A stretch of DNA of 64,000 nucleotides, from the NCBI GenBank assembly GCA_001770205.1, contig MEQL01000044.1, positions 1 to 64,000 on the forward strand, read 5' to 3'. Positions 40,781-54,473 of the stretch are shown in pieces; positions within the stretch are counted from its first letter, which is position 1, and the number at the start of each line of letters is the position of its first letter. Both the position numbers and the translations under genes were made by a program. A model generated the notes under the pieces. That model was not told where the DNA came from. It saw only the letters and a list, made by a program, of their open reading frames with translations, and did not search any database. Source of the DNA: Bdellovibrionales bacterium RIFOXYD12_FULL_39_22. GTDB lineage: Bacteria; Bdellovibrionota; Bacteriovoracia; Bacteriovoracales; Bacteriovoracaceae.

Positions 40781-43411
40781 ATGAAAAAATTGAGTTCTTA
40801 TGAGATTCGCGAAAAGTTTTTGGAATTTTTTCAGGAGATGGATCATTTAAAGATTTCTTCTTCTTCCATAATTCCCAAAAATGATAATACTTTACTTTTT
40901 ATAAATTCCGGGATGGCCCCACTAAAGCGTTATTTTTTGGGACAAGAGACTCCTCCGAAACCTCGTCTTTGTAATGTTCAGCCATGTATTCGCACCAAAG
41001 ATATTGATGACGTGGGAGATCGTCATCACCTTACTATTTTTGAGATGCTGGGAAGTTGGTCTATTGGAGATTATTACAAAGAAAAGGCCGTGGCCTTGGC
41101 CTATGATTTATTGGTTAATCGCTTGGGGTTTGATTCCAATCGTCTTTATGCCTCGGTCTATCGTGGTAATCCCAAACTTAATTTGCCGGCCGATGAGGTA
41201 TCTGCCAAGGCCTGGGAGAAGGCCGGTATAAAAAAAGAGCACATTGTTCGTTTGGGTGAGGATAATTTCTGGGGTCCGGCAGGAGATAGTGGGCCGTGCG
41301 GGCCTTGCACGGAAGTTTTTTATGATACAGGCGAGCAATTCGGCCCGGCCTATTTGCCAGGTGGAGAATTTGATACGACTAAGCGCTACATTGAGATATG
41401 GAACGCTGGGGTTTTTATGGAATTTAATAAAAGCAAGGAAGGGGAGTTTACTTCGTTGCCTTTAAAAAGTGTTGACACGGGAGCAGGATTGGAACGCTTG
41501 GCCATGATCATAAATGGGCATGAGTCAGTTTATGAAACAGATCTTTTGGCCCCTATCTTGAAGATTGTGCAAGAGCGTTATGGCGTAGAAATTCGCAAGG
41601 CCCGCATGATTACAGATCACATGCGGGCGGCAGTATTTATTTTGGCGGAGGGAGTAAATTGTAGTAATGAAGGGCAAGGATATATTCCTAGACGACTTAT
41701 TCGCAAGGTAGTGTCAGCACTAGTTAGTAGTAAAGTTTCTGATTTAAATTTGGGCCCGGTGGTAGATAAAATCATTGAAATTTTATCGCCAGTTTATCTG
41801 CATCTTAAAAACAAGCTGGATTTGGTTAAATATAATATTGGCCAAGAGGTGAAAGATTTTTATCCTGTAATTACTAATGGACTAGAGAGAATTGAAAAAG
41901 AGGTTGGACAGTTGGCCGGGAAGAAGTTTTTTTCTGGGAAAGTGGTTTGTGATTTGATGACGACCCATGGACTTCCTTTTGATGTTATTCAAAGTGATTT
42001 GAAGTATCGTGATATTGAAATTAATATGGACGAATTTGATCACGCCTACGAAGAACACAAAAAAATTTCTCGGGTTATAAAACGTGGGGATTCCAATTTG
42101 GGAGGATCTTCGTTGGATAATTTGCTAAAAGACCTTCCGCCCACGGATTTTGCTGGATATGAACAAGATCAACTTAAAGGTAAGATTACTCAAATTATTG
42201 TGGATGGAGCTTTTGTCTCTACCGTCGGGCCAGAAACTCCGGCCATTATCATTACCGATAAAACTTCTTTTTATGGAGAGTCGGGCGGCCAGGTGGGAGA
42301 CTGTGGAGTTATTTCTTCTAACGGTGCTCAGTTTCTAGTGGAGGATACGGGCAAGGAAAGAAATATATATCTGCATTATGGGAAGATGAAGGCCGGGAAG
42401 ATGAGTGTCGGCCACAGTTGTGAATTAGCGGTAGACGTAAAAAATAGAAATGCGATTAAGCGCAACCATTCGGCCACTCATCTTTTGCATGCGGCCTTGC
42501 ATAAAGTAGTGGGTATTCATGCCTTGCAAAAAGGTTCACATGTAACTGCTGATCGTTTGCGTTTTGATTTTAGTAACAATACTCAAGTCAGTTATGAGCA
42601 ACTAAAAGAGATTGAGCGACAAGTGAATGGTTTGATTTGTGCTAATATAAAACGCACTACCAATGTCATGGATTATGATAAGGCAGTGGCCTCTGGTGCC
42701 ATGGCATTGTTCGGAGAAAATTACACACAGAAAGTTCGAGTGGTTGCCCTCGGTGATAGTTCCATAGAGCTTTGCGGTGGAACACATGTTGATTACAGTG
42801 GAGAGATTGGGACTTTTTTAATTACTCAAGAAACTAGCGTTGCCAAAGGAGTTCGGCGTATTGAGGCCGTTACCGGTAGTGCGGCCATTGCATATCTGCA
42901 AGAGCAGCAATTGATGTTAAAAAACAGCGCAGATTTTTTGAAGGTGGGAGTGGATAAAGTTTTTGAGCAAGTTCAGATTTTAAAAAAACGATTAAGTGAG
43001 CAAACGAAACAAAATAACGACAGACGGAGTTTGACGTTAGAGGTAAGGCGAGAAGAGTTAGTTAAAATAAAAAATTTATTCTTTAAATTGGTTGAAGGGA
43101 AAATAGAGGAAGGAGTTTCCCTAAAAGAAATTGGTGATCAGATGATGGATAAAAAAGATGCCGATTTGCTTTGTTTACTTACGACAGATGATAAGGCGCT
43201 AAAAGTTTTTGTTTGGTCTGGGCAAAACAGTGTTGCTAAAGTTTTTGCTAATGAATTATTAGTTGAAATGTTAAGGCCGGTGGGTGGTAAGGGGGGCGGC
43301 CGGGCATCTTTTGCGCAGGGAGGAACATCTCAAGAGACGACAGAGAGCACAAATTTAATTTTTAAATTGGCCAAGACGGAAATTGCGACATGGATTGAGC
43401 GAAAGCTGTAA
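40781..43411 (+). CDS. alaS: Alanine--tRNA ligase (divergent)
   Basis: LLFINSGMAP, QPCIRT, FEMLG, GPCGPCTE and DTGAGLER; editing HSATH and ELCGGTH; GVRRIEA; DHHA1 GGKGGG. Start at ATG 40781. Confidence 0.93.
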   Translation: MKKLSSYEIREKFLEFFQEMDHLKISSSSIIPKNDNTLLFINSGMAPLKRYFLGQETPPKPRLCNVQPCIRTKDIDDVGDRHHLTIFEMLGSWSIGDYYKEKAVALAYDLLVNRLGFDSNRLYASVYRGNPKLNLPADEVSAKAWEKAGIKKEHIVRLGEDNFWGPAGDSGPCGPCTEVFYDTGEQFGPAYLPGGEFDTTKRYIEIWNAGVFMEFNKSKEGEFTSLPLKSVDTGAGLERLAMIINGHESVYETDLLAPILKIVQERYGVEIRKARMITDHMRAAVFILAEGVNCSNEGQGYIPRRLIRKVVSALVSSKVSDLNLGPVVDKIIEILSPVYLHLKNKLDLVKYNIGQEVKDFYPVITNGLERIEKEVGQLAGKKFFSGKVVCDLMTTHGLPFDVIQSDLKYRDIEINMDEFDHAYEEHKKISRVIKRGDSNLGGSSLDNLLKDLPPTDFAGYEQDQLKGKITQIIVDGAFVSTVGPETPAIIITDKTSFYGESGGQVGDCGVISSNGAQFLVEDTGKERNIYLHYGKMKAGKMSVGHSCELAVDVKNRNAIKRNHSATHLLHAALHKVVGIHALQKGSHVTADRLRFDFSNNTQVSYEQLKEIERQVNGLICANIKRTTNVMDYDKAVASGAMALFGENYTQKVRVVALGDSSIELCGGTHVDYSGEIGTFLITQETSVAKGVRRIEAVTGSAAIAYLQEQQLMLKNSADFLKVGVDKVFEQVQILKKRLSEQTKQNNDRRSLTLEVRREELVKIKNLFFKLVEGKIEEGVSLKEIGDQMMDKKDADLLCLLTTDDKALKVFVWSGQNSVAKVFANELLVEMLRPVGGKGGGRASFAQGGTSQETTESTNLIFKLAKTEIATWIERKL

Positions 43412-43423
43412 ATTACCTACAAA

Positions 43424-46400
43424 TTATGTTAGTTCTTTCCAGAAAAAGATGTAATCAAGCGCGTGTTTAAATGCTAACTGTTTCAGATTGGCATGTCCAG
43501 CATGTCCGCCATCAATGTTTTCATAATAATAAAATTGGTGGTGAAGCTCTTCAAGTTTTGCCGCAAATTTTCTAGCATGTCCCGGATGTACGCGATCATC
43601 TTTGGTAGAAGTATTTAAAAATATAGTTGGATATTTTTTGTTCGGAGGCAGATCCTTTTCAACACAGTGATAGGGGGAGATCTTGCGAATATACTCTCCA
43701 TCTTTTTCATCATCAGGATTTCCATATTCAGCAATCCAGCTATGTCCGGCCAACAGTTTATGATAACGTCGCATATCGAGCAGGGGCACTGCACAGTTTA
43801 TTGCGGCAAATAAGTCCGGGCGTTGAGTGTAGCAAACGCCCATGAGAAGGCCACCATTGCTTCCTCCCCATGCTCCGAGGTGACGGGGCGATGTGATTTT
43901 TTTTGCAAACAAGTCTTGAGCTATCGCAAAAAAATCTTCGTAGGTTTTATAACGATTTTCTTTAAGGGCACACTGATGCCATGTTGGGCCATATTCTCCA
44001 CCTCCGCGAATATTGGCCAGAACATAAACTCCACCTTTTTCTAACCAGGCAATGCCTTCAACATTTGAAAATTCAGGACACAAAGATACTTCAAAACCGC
44101 CGTAGCCATAGAGGATCGTGGGAGTATTACCATTAAAGACTAACCCTTTCTTGTGAACTAGAAAATATGGAATGGCAGTGTCATCAAAGCTTTTGACAAA
44201 ATATTGGTGGACTTCAATGTTCTTGTAATCAAAAAATGCAGGCTGGATTTTTACAACTGAAAAAGTTTCTACACCTGTCCCGAAATAATAGGAGGGCGGT
44301 GTATTAAAGGATGAATACATCACAAAAAAATTATCATTAGTGGCATCTGTGGTGAGTGCTTCGAGACTACCTTCGGAAGGAAGTTTAAGGTGGTGGCTTT
44401 GCCACGCAGATGAACTTTTTGTATAAAAATATAGATTCCCTTTGATATTTTCATTGATAATTACAAAAATCCCATTTTTGCTAATGGCCGTTGTGTGAAT
44501 CGAGCTGTTTTTTGCTGGCCGCAAAATTAATTCAATTGTTTTAGTTTGAAAGTCGTAGTGCAATAAATCACCTTGACAGAATTCTCTCCAGTTTTCTTTG
44601 ATTGTTACAAATAATGATGTGAGTGTGTGGCCTAAGTAGTCACACATTTGGGGTAAATCAATTTGTTCTGTTTTTGATGTCTCCTCGTTAAAGAGGAAAA
44701 ATTCTGAATGATAAAAGTCTATATTTCGCATCAAAATTATTTTATGCTCGGGGTTATTTGGTAAATAGAAGCTTCTTTGGAAAGCGAAGGTATCATTTTT
44801 TGAAATTTCAAAGACTGTTTTAGCGGAGGATAGTGTGCTGTTGCGCTTCCAGCGGCGGATAGTGCGAGGATATCCAGAAGCGGTTAAGGTTCCTTCTCCA
44901 AAATCGCGAGAGATAAGTATTGTATCATCATCTAACCAGACGGCCGAACCTTTGGATTTTGGTAAAACAAGGCCATCCGGCACAAATTGCAATTTAGTAA
45001 GATCAAATTCGCGTATTATATTTGCGTCGCAACCACCTGGAGACATGTAAATCAGAGCACGTTTTTGATTTGGGGAAATAGTAAAACCTTTTGGCACCCA
45101 TTTGATTTTTTCGATGTTGGAAAGTTGATCAAAGTCAATTACTGTTTCCCAGTTTGAATTATTTTTTTTGTATTCTTCGAGAGTAGTTCGTCGGAGAAGT
45201 CCCTGAGTATGCTCATCATCATACCAGGTGTTATATAAATATTCTCCATTCATATAGACGTAAGGAATTTTCTCCTTGGACTCTAGAATTTTAAGAATAT
45301 CGCTCTCTAATTTTGCAAATTCAGGGTGAGAGGTTAGTGGTTTTAGTGTGGTTTGATTTTTTTCTTTTACCCATGATATTGAGTCCTCAGATAAAACTTC
45401 TTCGAGCCAAAGATATTTATCATCTTGTTTTTTGATTACATTCATAATTTGCTCCACGGCCTTTTGGGTATTAAGATGATCCACCGTGGCCATTGGGGAT
45501 TTTACCGTTTTTTTGTAGTTTAAGTCGTAATAATTAACCATCATATCATCTAAAAATTTTTGATATTCGCCGTTATCAATGAATGCGTAAAGCATATTAG
45601 TTCGGGCAGGGCCTAGGCGTTTGGCGATATAGGAAATTTGTTCTCGTACTTGCGCAGTTGCCTCTTGGTTTTTGAAATACTCCTTTTCTAGGCGGGCCAG
45701 ACGCAATGCCAGTGGACATTCGAGAAGAATGTGATGCTCTTCTTCGAGTGCATCGAAAATAGCGGGGGGGATGGAAAATTTTCCAATGCGCTTGCTCTCT
45801 TTTTCTGAGAGAAAAACTGGCAGACGATCTTTGAATGGTAAAATTTGCAGAAAAAGATTGGTTTCAAACATCTGTTGATTGATGGGCATGGCGATCCCTT
45901 TTAGTTTAAAGCGAACTTCGCCAAAAACGGAGGAGGCGTGGCCAGCGGCACGTTCAATATGCAAAACGGGAAAAGTTGGATGGTTCTCTTCTAAGTATTC
46001 TAGAATTTCAGACTTGCCACAACCAGTTTTTCCGGAAAGAGAGATGATCTTAAATTTTGTCTCGTACATGTAGTGGTGTACAAGGCGACGAAACTCTTTT
46101 TGTCCTCCGGCAAGTTGGATAGCGTCAAAATTATTTTTTTGCAAAAGGTTAGTTGAATAGCGACTTCTTCCGCCACCTCGCCAACAAAAAACGATGATTT
46201 TCTTTTTACCATTATCAGAGCTTCGCGCGACTTGTTTTAAAAAATCAGATTCTTTTAGAGTGGCCAGGTGATAGGCGTAGTTGATCGCTTTTGCTTTTGA
46301 TACTTTGCTATAGATCAGTCCAACATCATGGCGTTCTTTATCGGTTAGAATGGGAATATTAATTGCGTATGGAATTGGGGTCTCGCTAAACTCGCGCTGG

Positions 46401-46582
46401 GATCGGACATCAATGATCACATAGTTGTTGGCACCATTTTTAACTATATCGAGAAAGGGGAGTAAATCTATTTGAGGGACTTTAGGGGCAATTTCTTTTA
46501 GCGAAACAGTTGAGAGGCATAACTGCTCAAGGAGAGCAGCAAGGTTAGCAACTTCTTGTGATTGATCATTTATCTTTTTCAT
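43424..46582 (-). CDS. Fusion of tRNA 2-selenouridine synthase (MnmH/SelU)-like and prolyl oligopeptidase (S9A) domains
   Basis: N-half has IDVRS..EF, ER..VG..Y, FCWRGGGRS, GKTGCGKS, ESKRIG, IAKRLG and YYD. C-half has DDKYLWLEE, a beta-propeller, YGYGGF, NIRGGGEYG, GGSNGG, DDRVHP and GGH. No stop between the halves. Confidence 0.85.
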   Translation of the reverse strand: MKKINDQSQEVANLAALLEQLCLSTVSLKEIAPKVPQIDLLPFLDIVKNGANNYVIIDVRSQREFSETPIPYAINIPILTDKERHDVGLIYSKVSKAKAINYAYHLATLKESDFLKQVARSSDNGKKKIIVFCWRGGGRSRYSTNLLQKNNFDAIQLAGGQKEFRRLVHHYMYETKFKIISLSGKTGCGKSEILEYLEENHPTFPVLHIERAAGHASSVFGEVRFKLKGIAMPINQQMFETNLFLQILPFKDRLPVFLSEKESKRIGKFSIPPAIFDALEEEHHILLECPLALRLARLEKEYFKNQEATAQVREQISYIAKRLGPARTNMLYAFIDNGEYQKFLDDMMVNYYDLNYKKTVKSPMATVDHLNTQKAVEQIMNVIKKQDDKYLWLEEVLSEDSISWVKEKNQTTLKPLTSHPEFAKLESDILKILESKEKIPYVYMNGEYLYNTWYDDEHTQGLLRRTTLEEYKKNNSNWETVIDFDQLSNIEKIKWVPKGFTISPNQKRALIYMSPGGCDANIIREFDLTKLQFVPDGLVLPKSKGSAVWLDDDTILISRDFGEGTLTASGYPRTIRRWKRNSTLSSAKTVFEISKNDTFAFQRSFYLPNNPEHKIILMRNIDFYHSEFFLFNEETSKTEQIDLPQMCDYLGHTLTSLFVTIKENWREFCQGDLLHYDFQTKTIELILRPAKNSSIHTTAISKNGIFVIINENIKGNLYFYTKSSSAWQSHHLKLPSEGSLEALTTDATNDNFFVMYSSFNTPPSYYFGTGVETFSVVKIQPAFFDYKNIEVHQYFVKSFDDTAIPYFLVHKKGLVFNGNTPTILYGYGGFEVSLCPEFSNVEGIAWLEKGGVYVLANIRGGGEYGPTWHQCALKENRYKTYEDFFAIAQDLFAKKITSPRHLGAWGGSNGGLLMGVCYTQRPDLFAAINCAVPLLDMRRYHKLLAGHSWIAEYGNPDDEKDGEYIRKISPYHCVEKDLPPNKKYPTIFLNTSTKDDRVHPGHARKFAAKLEELHHQFYYYENIDGGHAGHANLKQLAFKHALDYIFFWKELT

Positions 46583-46895
46583 TAGGTGATAATTTGTATC
46601 ATAGTTAAGGGGAAGACGGCCATAATTGAGAACAGATAGCTGGAACAATGTTAAGAGGGCCAAAGCTAGAGGCCCTAGCAAAGAAAAACGTCAGTCTAGG
46701 AAAGCAGAAATTATTTTCCTGTAAAAATTTCAAAAATATAGCTTCGATTGAAATTTTTGGTTATCATTCAAGTAGTAATTAACCGGGCCCGGCACACTCA
46801 AGTGATGAATACACTCAATAGTTCTGGGCCGATATCACTGATTGTATCGAGTTTTGAGACGATATTGTCAGTATAAAAAAAGGGAGGGGGGGGGG

Positions 46896-47348
46896 ATGAA
46901 GCTTATTATTATTTTAAATTTTTTTGTTATTACGTTGCTGGGCTCAATTTTTAGTTTTGCGGCCCTAGGGGCCGATTCGGTCATTTGCAGAAACGATGAT
47001 GCTGAAGAACATGGAGATAATGCGTGTGATTACTACATGATTTCTGGAAGAACAGATGATTTTAGCGGTCTACAGCTATCAACTTACAATCAGACTGCCG
47101 GCCGTACCTGCTGGTTAGTAAATCTTTTTAGCGACGCAACAGTAGTTGATCTAAAGGATGATGTGATTAAGTTGGAAGGGGTTTCTTCTAGCTCGAATGG
47201 TTGGAATAGGTCTACATATACTTATGCTGATCTCAAGTTGGACATGACTACCGGCGAAGGGATATTGTTGACTAAGGAAGGTAAAAGGCCAGAGGTACTT
47301 ATGATGTCTTGGAAAGAAGAGCGTTTGTCAAATTGTCGACGAGAATAG
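46896..47348 (+). CDS. Hypothetical secreted protein
   Basis: ATG 46896 after a G-rich SD; signal peptide; four Cys. Confidence 0.7.
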   Translation: MKLIIILNFFVITLLGSIFSFAALGADSVICRNDDAEEHGDNACDYYMISGRTDDFSGLQLSTYNQTAGRTCWLVNLFSDATVVDLKDDVIKLEGVSSSSNGWNRSTYTYADLKLDMTTGEGILLTKEGKRPEVLMMSWKEERLSNCRRE

Positions 47349-49520: not shown

Positions 49521-52500
49521 ATGACACACTCTTCTCACAGTGATATCCCAAAATTTTCGGATAATTTTTTTAATTCGCAGGAGTTATTTTGTCGTATTGG
49601 ACAGGGAGCGATTGGTGGGAAGGCCGCCGGCCTTTTCAATGTAAAGAGCTCCTTTGTAGAACGCGCCAGTGGATATAAAAACTCAACAGTTTCTTTGCAT
49701 TTCCCGAAGACGGCAGTAATAACAACTGACTTTTTTGATCTTTTTTTAAAAGAAAACAATTTGTACAAGGTGGCATATTCAAATACCTCAGATAGCTATA
49801 TTGCTCATGAATTTCAAAGGGCCGGTTTGCATCCGAAGTTGGTGGAGGCCCTAAAATCGATAGTTAGACAGACCAGCGTACCACTGGCAATTCGCTCTTC
49901 ATCGATCAGTGAAGATGCGACGGATCGTCCATTCGCGGGCGTCTTTAATACTAAGATGATTCCGAATAATCCTAAGGATGATGAGCGATTTAAAAAGTTA
50001 TTAGAGGCCATCAAATTTGTCTATGCTTCAACTTTTTTTAAAAGGGCCAAGGATTATTATCAAGCACTAAAACGAGAAGCTAGTGATGAAAAAATGGCGG
50101 TGATTATTCAACCTTGTGTTGGTAATAGTTATGGCGATTATTTTTATCCAGAAATTTCAGGAGTGGTGCGCTCGAGTAATTTTTATCCCACGGGAAGTCT
50201 ACGGCCATCAGACGGGGTGGCAAATTTGGCCTTTGGATTGGGCAAAACTATTGTTGATGGTGGAATCGCTTGGATCTATTCTCCGCAAATTCCTTCCGCC
50301 CCGGCACCCTTTAATTCTACAAAGGAGTTGCTAGATAACACCCAGACAAAATTTTGGGCCATAAATTTATTTCAGCATCAAGAATATAATCCTAGTTCGG
50401 AGACGGAGTTTATTGTCAATGAAGATATTATTGATGCAGGAGACAATGATCTCTTTCCTATTTTGGCCTCGACTTATGACACTATGTCGGACAGAGTGGT
50501 GATGGGGACTCCTATCGATGGGCCTCGAGTGATTGATTTTGCTCCTATTTTAAAATTAGAAATGGTGCGACTAAATGAAGCGATTAAAGCAGTTATGGGA
50601 ATTTGCGAAGAGCGACTTAATTCGTCGGTGGAGATTGAGTTTGCTGTAGAGTTTGATAAAAACAAAAAAAATCATGCTCGTTTTTATCTGTTACAGGTGC
50701 GCCAAATGTCTCTTTCTTTTGAGACGATAGCAGTGGAAGAGAGTGAGTTATATGATGGAAATAATCTGGTGGCCTCGCGTACGGTGCATGGCAATGGACT
50801 TATAAGTGATATTTGTGATGTGGTCTACGTGCGGCCAGACAAGTTTGATCTCAAATATACTCAACAAATTGCCAAAGAATTAGAGTCGATAAATAGTGAT
50901 TTTATTAAAGAGAGGAAAAAATATCTTTTGATTGGACTGGGACGTTGGGGAAGTTCTGATCCATTACTGGGAATTCCGGTTAAGTGGGCGCAGATTTCGC
51001 AGGCCCGAGCTATTGTTGAAACTACTCAGCCTGGTATGTTTGTAGAGATGAGTCAGGGGACACATTTTTTTCATAATATAACAAGTTCTCACGTTTTTTA
51101 TTTTTCGGTGGAGTATTTTGATAAGTATAAAATCGATTGGGATTGGCTGGATCATCGAGTGGAGATTACTGAAACTCAATTTGTCAAACATGTGTCACTA
51201 GATAGGCCGCTGTATATTAAAGTTGATGGCCGGACCCAACGAGGAGTAATACAGAAATTTTTCATTGATAGGACTATTAAAGAAAAAGATGAGATCTCTC
51301 AAAAAGAACGGCGCAAGGAATTAAAGTGTATTTATGAAGTAGAAAAGCTTTTAGGGCCAAGCTCAAAATCGATGGATGAGGTGTTGGCCAAAGTGGCAGA
51401 GGCGATGCGCAGTGGTTGGATGTATCCAGAAGAGTGTGTTGTCCAAATTAATTATCAGAATATGCAAATAGGGAGTAGCAATTTTTGCAGTACTTCTTGG
51501 TGTTTACAAAATGAACTAGTGGCCTCAGGGCGTAAAGTTGGAGAGATAAAAGTTTGTTATCTAAAAGAACTTCCGGCCACCGATGTTGGGCCGTTTTTAA
51601 ATGAGGAAGTTAAGCTACTAGAAAATATTGGCAATTTATTGGCCGCCTATTTAGATAAATATGAAGGCGTTGCGGGTGATGATAAACAGAAAAAAGGGGC
51701 AAAAACGGCCAATTGGAAAATGGCCTTGGAGATGATTTCAAAAAGTGACGCAAAGTTATTGATGCTAGTAACCAAAAAGATGCTCTATCAGCTTTGTCTT
51801 AGTAATAATGCCAAGGCACAGGCCTTGCTAGAACAATTTGATAAAGATGCCGAAGAGAAAAGTAATGAAAGTTTTGGAGATGCTAATGTTCCACTGAAAA
51901 AAAAGGGCCATTTTGATGTAATAGATTTACGCGATGAGATCTTTGAAATTGCCACCAGTTTTTTTTCGGATCATGAAATTTTTTCCTTCTTAGATGCTTG
52001 GAGTCAGCAGCATAATGCTAATTTTTTAGTGGATATTTTAAGTAACCAACAGTCTTCAATGTCTGATATTATTAACGCCATTTCTCGCTATTTGCATATT
52101 TATCAAAATACCAAAAATCTTCCCGGGCCTACTAAAAGACAATTGCTTGTTTCTCTGATTGGCCGATTTATTACCACTAGTCCGGAATATATTCGAGTGG
52201 CCAAAAACTTTTTTGAAATTGAAGATTTTTTAGAGATACTTCATTTTGTAATAACTCCTACTCGTGGACATGGAACTATTGGCGGTAAAGGTGCTGGTAT
52301 GTTCTTGGCCTATAAAATTTTAAGTAAAGAGAGTAGTGGTGATTTTGGGACGCTAAAAATTCCAAAAACTTGGTATCTTTCTACGGATGCTTTTGACAAT
52401 TTTATTCACCACAATAATTTAGGTGATCTCTTTGAGCAAAAATATCGCCCAATTGATCAGATCAGACAGGAACATCCGCATATTGTTCAACTCTTTAAAA

Positions 52501-54473
52501 GTTCACCTTTTTCTAGCGATATTATCAAAGGATTGACAAAGGCCTTAGAAGATTTAGGCGACCTTCCTCTTGTTGTTAGGAGTTCTTCTATTTTAGAAGA
52601 TAGTTTTACCGCCTCCTTTGCCGGAAAATATAAGAGTCTTTTTTTGGCCAATCAGGGAAGTCGAGACCAGCGCCTGTCAGCACTGATGGATGCTATTGCA
52701 GAGATCTATGCTTCAACATTTGCACCAGATCCAATCTCTTATCGCAGCGAACGCAATCTCTTAGATGTAAAAGAGTCGATGGGAATTATGATTCAAGCGG
52801 TGGTCGGCCAGAAAGTACATGATTATTACTTCCCCTCTTTGGCCGGAGTAATGTTTTCGAATAATGAATTTCGTTGGTCTAAGCGCATCAAAAGAGATGA
52901 TGGCCTATTGCGAATTGTACCAGGCCTTGGTACTAGGGCCGTAGATCGGGTTAGCGATGATTATCCAATCCTCATAGCTCCTGGACAACCAGGGTTACGC
53001 GTTAATATTTCGGTGGAAGAGGTGGCGCGTTATTCTCCTAAAAAGATTGATTTGATTAATCTAAAAAAGGGGACCTTTGAGACGCATGATGTTTATAAAA
53101 TTTTAAAAGAACTAGGTTATGACTATCCTAAACTTAAACAAATTGTCTCAATCTACGATCGAACTCGCATCTATCGTCCGGCGGGAGTAGATTTGGATAT
53201 TGAAAATAGAGAGATGGTGGTAACTTTTGAAGGACTGTTTTCAGATACCAACTTTATTGCGCAAATGAAGCAATATATTAATCAGTTAAAAGAAGTTTTT
53301 GAGTTTCCAGTGGATGTTGAATTTGCTCATGATGGGAATGATTTTTATCTGTTGCAATGTCGGCCACAAATAAATGGCCAAGACAGTAGGTCGATCCCCA
53401 TTCCTAAAAATATTTCAAAGGAGCGCACACTATTTTCCGCCAATAAATTTATCTCTAACGGAGCGATTCCAGATATAACTCATATCGTCTATGTTGATCC
53501 GCAGTCCTATTCCAAAGTGGCCAGCATTGATGATTTAATTCGGGTAGGAGAGGCGATTGGACTATTAAATAAAATTTTGCCGAAGCGCCGATTTATACTA
53601 ATGGGGCCTGGGCGCTGGGGAAGTCGAGGTGATATTAAGTTGGGAGTACGTACTTCTTATTCTGATCTTAACAATACGGCCGTGCTTATTGAGATCGCCA
53701 GGAAGAAAGGAAATTATACTCCAGAGTTATCTTTTGGAACGCACTTTTTTCAGGATTTGGTCGAGTCCTCCATTCGCTATATTCCTCTTTATCCGGATGA
53801 TGAAGAAGTTGATTTTAATAATGATTTTTTTCAAAATGCCACCAACCTTTTGGCCGATTTGGCCCCCAATTATCAGGATCTGAGTGCAGTTGTTAGAGTT
53901 ATTGATGTTGGCCAAAACAGCGAAGGAAAAATTTTACGAATAGTAATGAGTTCAGAAGAAGATAGGGCCTTAGGTTTTTTAACTTACGCAGATGATTTAA
54001 CCGGACACATGGAGGAAGCACCTCCTTCTCCTGCGGGGCCGCCGATATCTGCCAGTAATTTCTCCACCTCCACGGTTTTTAACGTGGCCAAGGGTAATAT
54101 TTATGAGCGTAGCAGATGGAATTGGCGCATGTATATGGCCTTGGAGCTTTCTAAGCAATTAGATCGAGAACGTTTTGGAGTAGTTGATCTATATCTAATT
54201 GGAAGTGTGAAAACGGAAACGTTTGATGCGGAAAGCGATATTGATTTATTAGTTCATTTTGCGGGAGATGAACATCAACTTTGCTCACTATCTCATTGGT
54301 TGGAGGGATGGAGTCGTTGTCTGGGAGTGATGAATTATCTCTATTCTGGATATCGCCGTGAAGAGCTTTTAGATGTCAAGATTGTGACCGATGCTAATAT
54401 TGAAGAGAAGTATAAATATGCAGTTAAAATTGGGGCGGCAACTGATTCGGCCTTAAAGTTAGGGGGTAAATAG
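49521..54473 (+). CDS. 1650-aa protein: two PPDK_N (PEP-synthase-like ATP-grasp) modules, a GAF-like linker and a C-terminal Pol-beta-type nucleotidyltransferase
   Basis: IGGK, RSSS..ED...FAG, M.V/IIQ, GLG...V, EFA, LLQ.R, G.GRWGS and GTHFF each occur twice. C-terminal IGSV...SDIDLLV. No pyruvate-binding TIM barrel. Confidence 0.82.
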   Translation: MTHSSHSDIPKFSDNFFNSQELFCRIGQGAIGGKAAGLFNVKSSFVERASGYKNSTVSLHFPKTAVITTDFFDLFLKENNLYKVAYSNTSDSYIAHEFQRAGLHPKLVEALKSIVRQTSVPLAIRSSSISEDATDRPFAGVFNTKMIPNNPKDDERFKKLLEAIKFVYASTFFKRAKDYYQALKREASDEKMAVIIQPCVGNSYGDYFYPEISGVVRSSNFYPTGSLRPSDGVANLAFGLGKTIVDGGIAWIYSPQIPSAPAPFNSTKELLDNTQTKFWAINLFQHQEYNPSSETEFIVNEDIIDAGDNDLFPILASTYDTMSDRVVMGTPIDGPRVIDFAPILKLEMVRLNEAIKAVMGICEERLNSSVEIEFAVEFDKNKKNHARFYLLQVRQMSLSFETIAVEESELYDGNNLVASRTVHGNGLISDICDVVYVRPDKFDLKYTQQIAKELESINSDFIKERKKYLLIGLGRWGSSDPLLGIPVKWAQISQARAIVETTQPGMFVEMSQGTHFFHNITSSHVFYFSVEYFDKYKIDWDWLDHRVEITETQFVKHVSLDRPLYIKVDGRTQRGVIQKFFIDRTIKEKDEISQKERRKELKCIYEVEKLLGPSSKSMDEVLAKVAEAMRSGWMYPEECVVQINYQNMQIGSSNFCSTSWCLQNELVASGRKVGEIKVCYLKELPATDVGPFLNEEVKLLENIGNLLAAYLDKYEGVAGDDKQKKGAKTANWKMALEMISKSDAKLLMLVTKKMLYQLCLSNNAKAQALLEQFDKDAEEKSNESFGDANVPLKKKGHFDVIDLRDEIFEIATSFFSDHEIFSFLDAWSQQHNANFLVDILSNQQSSMSDIINAISRYLHIYQNTKNLPGPTKRQLLVSLIGRFITTSPEYIRVAKNFFEIEDFLEILHFVITPTRGHGTIGGKGAGMFLAYKILSKESSGDFGTLKIPKTWYLSTDAFDNFIHHNNLGDLFEQKYRPIDQIRQEHPHIVQLFKSSPFSSDIIKGLTKALEDLGDLPLVVRSSSILEDSFTASFAGKYKSLFLANQGSRDQRLSALMDAIAEIYASTFAPDPISYRSERNLLDVKESMGIMIQAVVGQKVHDYYFPSLAGVMFSNNEFRWSKRIKRDDGLLRIVPGLGTRAVDRVSDDYPILIAPGQPGLRVNISVEEVARYSPKKIDLINLKKGTFETHDVYKILKELGYDYPKLKQIVSIYDRTRIYRPAGVDLDIENREMVVTFEGLFSDTNFIAQMKQYINQLKEVFEFPVDVEFAHDGNDFYLLQCRPQINGQDSRSIPIPKNISKERTLFSANKFISNGAIPDITHIVYVDPQSYSKVASIDDLIRVGEAIGLLNKILPKRRFILMGPGRWGSRGDIKLGVRTSYSDLNNTAVLIEIARKKGNYTPELSFGTHFFQDLVESSIRYIPLYPDDEEVDFNNDFFQNATNLLADLAPNYQDLSAVVRVIDVGQNSEGKILRIVMSSEEDRALGFLTYADDLTGHMEEAPPSPAGPPISASNFSTSTVFNVAKGNIYERSRWNWRMYMALELSKQLDRERFGVVDLYLIGSVKTETFDAESDIDLLVHFAGDEHQLCSLSHWLEGWSRCLGVMNYLYSGYRREELLDVKIVTDANIEEKYKYAVKIGAATDSALKLGGK

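Follow-up and report, generated by a model that had tools for sequence, protein, structure and literature searches.

An in-frame fusion of an MnmH-type tRNA 2-selenouridine synthase with a prolyl oligopeptidase in a Bdellovibrionales genome

In Salmonella, the tRNA 2-selenouridine synthase MnmH (SelU) depends on C97 for selenation and on K155 for geranylation, according to one study (PMC4830565), and a review, in its available part, mentions fusions of SelD and none of SelU (PMC9312934). Among the papers listed by our own literature searches, none names MnmH/SelU and prolyl oligopeptidase (POP) together, and none of those listed on MnmH/SelU or on POP in Bdellovibrio-like bacteria pointed to a fusion of the two. 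Here we analyze a gene that carries both enzymes in one reading frame, located on the minus strand of a 64,000-nucleotide stretch of the Bdellovibrionales bacterium RIFOXYD12_FULL_39_22 genome (assembly GCA_001770205.1, contig MEQL01000044.1, positions 1 to 64,000), hereafter referred to as the window. The gene had been singled out in an original prediction made from the sequence letters alone, which left the strand unnamed and was correct as to the coordinates (43424..46582) and the unbroken frame. It proposed either a bifunctional protein linking sulfur, selenium or prenyl chemistry to peptide processing, or the recent loss of a boundary between two genes.

The fusion frame is continuous, both of its halves are complete with their catalytic residues intact, and we found neither a second case nor a conserved linkage between the two genes in the collections described below. 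We consider it likely, though well short of certain, that two complete and otherwise independent genes have genuinely been fused end to end at this locus, in this lineage only and probably recently. The architecture is new whereas its parts are not, and we see no sign of new biology in it.

The fused reading frame and its join

From its longest start, a TTG, the open frame spans 43424..46681 and encodes 1085 amino acids (aa), whereas from the ATG at position 46582 it encodes 1052 aa. Support for the ATG comes from 17 stand-alone MnmH relatives, all of which begin at the aligned position. Profile searches divide the resulting protein into two modules. The N-terminal half, originally described as a full-length rhodanese plus P-loop region resembling MnmH, scores above the cut-offs of two NCBIfam MnmH equivalogs over residues 51-385 (NF008750, 273.8 bits against 241; TIGR03167, 246.3 bits against 219.75), and the active cysteine located in the FCWRGG segment corresponds to C133, which is invariant in 19 of 19 aligned MnmH sequences. 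The C-terminal half had been described as a complete S9A peptidase with an intact Ser-Asp-His triad, and this description was likewise borne out. It matches both Peptidase_S9_N (111.7 bits, cut-off 24) and Peptidase_S9 (149.7 bits, cut-off 22.6), and S908 (in GGSNGG), D995/D996 (DDR) and H1027 (GGH) all fall in invariant columns of an alignment of ten POP sequences (A1). The choice between D995 and D996 as the catalytic aspartate leans on what we take to hold for porcine POP.

Stand-alone relatives of 660-661 aa, some of them source-labelled Bacteriovorax sp., share 54-57% identity with the POP half. Among solved structures this half matches best 4hvt, a "post-proline cleaving enzyme" (402 bits, with residues 13-669 of the 673-aa part covered), followed by 7vgb, 2bkl, 3iuj and 1h2w. 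Assignment to oligopeptidase B was considered and rejected (NF007511, 124.3 bits against a cut-off of 1313). A related genome contains a POP homologue, up to 55% identical, that is interrupted by many stop codons and appears to be a pseudogene (G008:C12:4057-5837, L014).

Alignment A1 and its MnmH counterpart (A2, 19 sequences) place the join at a single residue. The seven stand-alone POP relatives of 660-661 aa in A1 start with M[ET]DKYLWLE, and their initial methionine aligns with Q386 of the fusion; the POP part starts exactly where these proteins do ("MEDKYLWLEE"), in agreement with the predicted absence of a signal peptide. On the other side, the nearest MnmH relative, P0128, is a stand-alone protein of 384 aa with its own stop codon (64% identity over 99% of its length), and its last residue aligns with the same Q386, the C-termini of other subfamily members falling within a few residues of this position. 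Since the end of P0128 and the first methionine of the POPs coincide at Q386, both genes are complete and are joined end to start with zero linker. In a full-chain AlphaFold2 model based on 34 sequences (mean predicted local distance difference test score, pLDDT, 90.3; predicted template-modelling score, pTM, 0.71), the last MnmH helix (residues 372-386) is followed by a loop of about four residues and then by the first POP helices. Model confidence dips only at residues 381-390, to a pLDDT of 79, and an N-terminal extension is predicted to form helices at residues 8-21, 28-31 and 40-48.

The absence of a linker, the stand-alone state of the nearest MnmH and POP relatives and the occurrence of the fusion as one strain-level sequence make a recent loss of the gene boundary the better fitting of the two explanations first proposed. 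Composition makes no case for a foreign origin of either half, the difference being too small (G+C 0.408 and third-position G+C, GC3, 0.39 in the MnmH half; 0.386 and 0.334 in the POP half; genome G+C 0.392).

A run of six adenines (A6) sits exactly at the join, where a miscounted homopolymer, or a chimeric joining of two genes during sequencing or assembly, could have generated a spurious fusion. The stretch is present in ten public runs from seven studies, labelled as groundwater or soil metagenomes, and eight of the ten may be the source of this DNA, so that most may share one origin; the evidence on accuracy consists of the per-run assembled contigs (Logan) of four runs, and not of raw reads. 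These separate assemblies nevertheless agree. Two contigs of 84.5 kb and 10.3 kb cover the whole gene with 0 differences, and short pieces from two runs not flagged as possible source (X9 and X10) match exactly, the X9 piece (45302-45480) crossing the join and the X10 piece covering its flanks only. Over the interval 45400-45500, which the original prediction had singled out for a check of read support, the assembled contigs coincide letter for letter and contain neither a stop nor a frameshift. The five members of the 90% protein cluster are likewise one sequence with differing start calls (1085, 1085, 1079, 1052 and 673 aa). Moreover, homology is continuous through the A run on both sides, and with either five or seven adenines the POP frame would be without ATG, GTG or TTG for 57 codons, into its conserved N-terminus, so that a homopolymer miscount cannot yield two normal genes. 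We consequently regard an artefact as extremely improbable.

A real frame might still serve mainly to produce separate proteins, with the full-length fusion as a minor product, if free POP were made by initiation at M380 and free MnmH arose by a -1 slip at A6. The ATG of M380 is the only one of the 15 internal ATGs in the open reading frame (ORF) with a strict Shine-Dalgarno (SD) sequence (GGAG, 6-nt spacing); across the genome, 3.9% of 14116 internal ATGs have one. The NCBI annotation P0126 starts at M380, while the main ATG at 46582 has no SD. A -1 slip, equivalent to one extra A, would bring a TGA two codons on and end MnmH after codon 387, which is a natural MnmH length. The GGAG, however, arises from the codons for Val and Glu within a KAVEQ sequence also found in the stand-alone relative P0146 and may therefore be a coincidence. 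The missing SD at M1 is hardly telling either, given that a strict SD precedes the first ATG in just some 31% of 1612 long ORFs. Off-frame stops and AAA-AAA lysine pairs are common at 39% G+C, and no frameshift-stimulating RNA structure was supported after A6 (z = -0.94; 38 of 200 shuffles fold as well). A scan of 43200-47000 for promoters and terminators was uninformative, with 9 and 3 sites against 9.2 and 3.3 expected by chance, and an Rfam scan returned just two sub-threshold chance matches. On balance, we deem it unlikely that the locus works mainly as a source of separate proteins.

Table 1. Features of the fused gene, in coordinates of the window.
Feature	Position	Strand	Basis or remarks
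Whole fused coding sequence	43424..46582	-	1052 codons plus stop codon 43424-43426; identical in per-run assemblies
MnmH/SelU module, residues 1-385 (predicted tRNA 2-selenouridine synthase, "AGHASSVFG" subfamily)	45428..46582	-	NCBIfam; 64% identity to P0128
N-terminal extension, about 50 aa	46433..46582	-	Subfamily-wide, not in canonical MnmH; alignments A2, A3
Rhodanese domain, residues 51-165, with Cys133 codon 46184-46186 in FCWRGG	46088..46432	-	Pfam PF00581
Walker A/P-loop GKTGCGKS, residues 184-191 (K190)	46010..46033	-	G184, T186, G187, G189 and K190 invariant
Subfamily signature HIERAAGHASSVFG, residues 208-221	45920..45961	-	Alignment A2; canonical rows read DLEGLAxHRGSxxG
Join: A6 run 45428-45433 (codons K384-K385) and Q386 (45425-45427)	45425..45433	-	Alignments
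Internal start candidate: GGAG 45452-45455, 6-nt spacer, ATG of M380 45443-45445	45443..45455	-	NCBI 673-aa call P0126 begins here
S9A prolyl oligopeptidase module, residues 386-1052	43427..45427	-	Pfam PF02897 and PF00326
Peptidase_S9_N (N-terminal segment and beta-propeller), residues 384-766	44285..45433	-	Pfam; model beta strands 443-826
Peptidase_S9 alpha/beta-hydrolase, residues 844-1047	43442..44053	-	Pfam
Triad codons S908; D995/D996; H1027	43859-43861; 43595-43600; 43502-43504	-	Invariant columns in alignment A1

The MnmH module and selenium genes of the genome

The canonical DLEGLAxHRGS motif is absent from the MnmH half, a departure that the original prediction had taken for a change in this protein. 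The corresponding segment reads HIERAAGHASSVFG, in which E210, A213, S218 and G221 are preserved, along with a nearly invariant H215, and the arginine is replaced by alanine. Alignments A2 and A3 reveal instead that this sequence is the conserved signature, and hallmark, of a whole subfamily of stand-alone MnmH proteins of 384-418 aa (consensus PVLHLEEAAGHASSVFG), with source labels from the Desulfobacterales, Spirochaetota, Bacteriovoracaceae and Lentisphaeraceae. The stand-alone proteins of this subfamily are P0128-P0172, with example loci L274, L288, L309, L348 and L284, and the papers listed by our literature searches point to no assayed member among them. Three further MnmH-like proteins, P0123 and P0124 (about 610 aa) and P0226 (548 aa), carry ahead of the rhodanese domain 125-195 residues without a Pfam match.

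The lack of the canonical motif, the lack of an SD at the main start and a selD that no longer adjoins mnmH, unlike the arrangement in 7 of 11 loci of the family, could all be read as marks of a decaying fusion in which one half, most likely MnmH, no longer has a function and the POP alone counts. The motif variant, however, is common to at least 17 stand-alone relatives and conserved in them, and the half scores above curated equivalog cut-offs. The window protein retains all 35 columns that are invariant across canonical and subfamily MnmH, as well as all 55 that are invariant within the subfamily; C133 and K190, the counterparts of Salmonella C97 and K155, are among them. Nor did rate tests detect acceleration in either half. 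The MnmH half lies on average 0.7 identity points farther from 16 outgroups than its sister P0128, and for the POP half the differences are +1.3 and -0.9 points with respect to two clear outgroups, the other six POP comparisons being invalid as a rate test because P0005 is not a true sister.

The gene content of the genome (3.95 Mb, 62 contigs, 94.6% complete) also bears on this question. The statement in the original prediction that selD is missing holds for the window and fails for the genome, where a true selD is found on contig C42 (390.6 bits, cut-off 125) and all four selD-family matches fall outside the window's contig. The genome further encodes mnmA (trmU; 429.3 bits) and, among its 37 tRNAs, tRNA-Glu(UUC), tRNA-Lys(UUU) and tRNA-Gln(UUG). 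Searches of the same genome found no second mnmH, no selA, no selB above cut-off, no YqeB/YqeC and no tRNA-Sec among the 37 tRNAs. As far as an incomplete genome can tell, selenium serves no recognised trait but selenouridine, for which the fused protein is the only synthase, and this argues that the N-terminal module is in use. The MnmH half is thus probably needed, and a decaying fusion we rate as highly improbable. Just upstream of the true mnmA, the genome contains a second trmU/mnmA-like frame scoring below cut-off (178 bits), the two frames lying at G000:C35:115041-116150 and 117462-118520 (L362 and L363).

Search for the fusion elsewhere and gene neighbourhoods

The original prediction knew of no such fusion, and searches for the same architecture in protein clusters and about 240 related genomes gave no second case. 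A full-length query against 5.8 billion protein clusters returned 7793 hits, and among the best 120, which were examined, MnmH domains occur only in the window's own cluster. Of 5586 candidate proteins of 578-1841 aa, four matched the MnmH part: the window's own cluster, P0122, and a pair of ~610-aa proteins whose N-terminal extensions are unassigned. None of the three other than the window's carries a peptidase. No frame with both halves was found in 40 relatives and 200 genomes of the same family, none of them from the same genus, in which MnmH frames are at most 418 aa long. A HMMER search with the junction-spanning region against 1.84 billion representatives gave no two-sided match among its best 150 hits, a result that lends weak support, as the library consists of 50%-identity representatives without the window's protein and could hide fused minor cluster members. 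P0122, a 698-aa MnmH-SelD fusion on one metagenome contig (rhodanese and P-loop regions N-terminal, AIRS/AIRS_C at 403-697), is the only other MnmH joined to a second recognised enzyme domain in this search.

The neighbourhoods of mnmH genes provide a second view on whether the two enzymes belong together. When 94 other mnmH loci (80 with flanks of up to 6 kb and 14 with flanks of 1.5 kb) were searched with the POP part by tblastn, there was no match. The five Spirochaetota loci of the same MnmH subtype all adjoin a convergent CBS-pair gene, three of them also having beta-oxidation genes nearby (FadB-like and thiolase), and none has a peptidase beside mnmH. In a scan of 11 canonical mnmH loci of the same family, after exclusion of two near-duplicates, selD lies directly upstream of mnmH in seven and a peptidase adjoins it in none. 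A motif-based DNA scan yielded 87 loci, of which six encode MnmH, one of these (L360) being again from genome G056 (see below). A CWRGGxRS pattern search combined with alignments A2 and A3 gave one subfamily locus among the matches listed. The 2675-nt contig of P0128 was sought in metagenome and genome contigs, and no pattern match there encoded a P0128 relative. In all, the neighbourhoods of seven subfamily loci outside the window were covered. A search of G056 for a POP homologue gave no signal, which in a search of this kind is no evidence of absence.

These observations weigh on the first of the explanations originally offered, in which the fusion would be an adaptive bifunctional enzyme whose MnmH subtype and oligopeptidase share a task and are kept together by selection, for instance in peptide or selenium metabolism or through a peptidase tethered to tRNA. 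The seamless in-frame join of two intact halves and the confident whole-chain model (pTM 0.71) speak for this explanation, as do two loci at which a subtype mnmH lies close to peptidase-related genes. In G056, a genome of the same family, an apparent selD-mnmH-M13 peptidase operon (L121, G056:C11, 558-4679, minus strand) includes a subtype mnmH, 46% identical, whose end is overlapped by 17 nt by the gene for a 660-aa M13 (neprilysin/PepO-type) peptidase, so that the two appear translationally coupled downstream of selD. In the partial metagenome locus L226, a serpin gene lies upstream of the subtype mnmH. Against it stand the failure to find a second MnmH-POP fusion in clusters, relatives, family genomes or the HMMER search, the absence of POP from all 94 other mnmH loci and of any peptidase from the five Spirochaetota and 11 family loci, the fact that the usual partner of mnmH is selD, and the lack of any paper naming both enzymes among those listed by a literature search. 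The neighbours in the window are a convergent alaS, a small unassigned ORF and genes for glutamate dehydrogenase, response regulators and transporters, and do not point to a shared task either. The pattern known as the "Rosetta stone", in which halves are fused or adjacent in independent lineages, was not found, the M13 gene of G056 being a single exception and of another kind. We read the G056 overlap and the L226 serpin as chance, leaving a small door open, and judge an adaptive bifunctional enzyme to be quite unlikely; the proposed link between sulfur, selenium or prenyl chemistry and peptides found no support in these neighbourhoods.

A broader conjecture would combine the G056 operon with the features of the join. 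The MnmH subtype would be tied to cytosolic oligopeptidases across this family of predatory bacteria, fused to an S9 POP in one genus and coupled translationally to an M13 peptidase, downstream of selD, in another, and the locus would work in a dnaX-like manner, the 0 frame giving the fusion, a -1 slip at A6 free MnmH, and the SD and ATG of M380 free POP. Were this so, translation would set the ratio of tethered to free enzymes. We hold this conjecture to be very unlikely.

Several additional features were noted at these loci. Downstream of a canonical mnmH in one family member (L107, G081:C11, 2523-3916) lie genes for a TusA-domain protein and a NifS-like class-V aminotransferase, and at two further family loci (L101 and L106) a YeeE-type "sulphur transport" gene follows canonical mnmH; the window gene is without sulfur- or selenium-handling neighbours of this kind. 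Elsewhere in the window, a 1650-aa ORF on the plus strand (49521-54470) contains two PPDK_N (pyruvate phosphate dikinase AMP/ATP-binding) stretches within residues 919-1293 and, close to the C-terminal end, a weak match to a nucleotidyltransferase, its first ~900 residues being unassigned.

Interpretation and comparison with known systems

Under the reading that we favour, a recent end-to-end fusion of two independent genes, the N-terminal module (residues 1-385) would be the only MnmH of the organism, as far as found, and would use selenophosphate supplied by the separate SelD. Family membership and genome content suggest that it most likely turns (c)mnm5s2U34 into the 2-seleno form in tRNA-Glu, tRNA-Lys and tRNA-Gln. 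The C-terminal module (residues 386-1052) would be, as its family indicates, an ordinary cytosolic S9A POP that trims short peptides after proline. Linked by a hinge of about four residues, the two modules probably work independently on one polypeptide, and the fusion is probably neutral, or close to it. Initiation at the ATG of M380, which is in frame and preceded by its own GGAG, may additionally yield some free POP.

A number of points weigh against this reading. The subfamily has alanine in place of the arginine of HRGS, and synthesis of selenouridine by this subtype is a prediction from sequence. The main ATG has no SD while M380 has one, and POP may consequently be made mostly alone. The accuracy of the sequence rests on assembled contigs, eight of the ten runs may be its source, and the X10 piece covers only the flanks of the join. 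The overlap of mnmH with the M13 gene in G056 could hint at a non-random link between MnmH and peptidases. Finally, the fusion is known from one strain-level sequence, so that nothing shows selection keeping it.

If the fusion is indeed a recent and functionally idle union of independent genes, it offers a clean natural case of the birth of a multidomain protein, caught before its spread or decay. It would also caution against predicting function through "guilt by fusion", as the fusion would here be uninformative on function. Two by-products of the analysis may prove more useful than the fusion itself. One is a distinct MnmH subfamily, characterized by its N-terminal extension and the AGHASSVFG segment; the other is a genome whose sole recognised use of selenium goes through the fused protein, which makes it a simple system in which to ask if selenouridine is still formed by the fused enzyme.

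Compared with the bacterial S9A POPs of known structure (4hvt, 2bkl, 3iuj and 1yr2) and with the porcine enzyme (1h2w), the C-terminal module shares the N-terminal segment, the beta-propeller and the alpha/beta-hydrolase domain with its Ser-Asp-His triad. Unlike stand-alone POPs, it lacks its own start at the usual site, where Met1 is replaced by Q386 and the chain runs on from MnmH. The S9A fold is also shared with the POP macrocyclases PCY1, GmPOPB and OphP (5o3u, 5uw3, 5n4c and the 7zb0 series, 154-190 bits over the catalytic half), which are far more distant from the window POP than hydrolytic POPs are. The ORFs of at least 110 aa within about 10 kb of the fusion are housekeeping or regulatory genes, and no gene of the type associated with ribosomally synthesised and post-translationally modified peptides (RiPPs) is evident among them, small precursor ORFs not having been searched.

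With the canonical MnmH (SelU, YbbB) of E. coli and Salmonella, the N-terminal module shares a rhodanese domain with its cysteine in the CxRGG loop, followed by a Walker A P-loop domain, and the genome likewise encodes selD and mnmA. It differs from them, as its subfamily does, in an N-terminal extension of about 50 aa, in AGHASSVFG in place of HRGSxxG and in an insertion after the signature; in addition, the window protein is 26-31% identical to the aligned canonical sequences, is fused to a peptidase and does not adjoin selD. In the selD-mnmH operon of the family (7 of 11 loci, and also G056), selD lies upstream of mnmH, whereas the window genome has both genes, with selD on another contig. 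A parallel in architecture is P0122. Whereas no link to selenium or tRNA is known for the POP partner of the window protein, the SelD partner of P0122 donates the substrate of MnmH itself, which makes that fusion functionally sensible.

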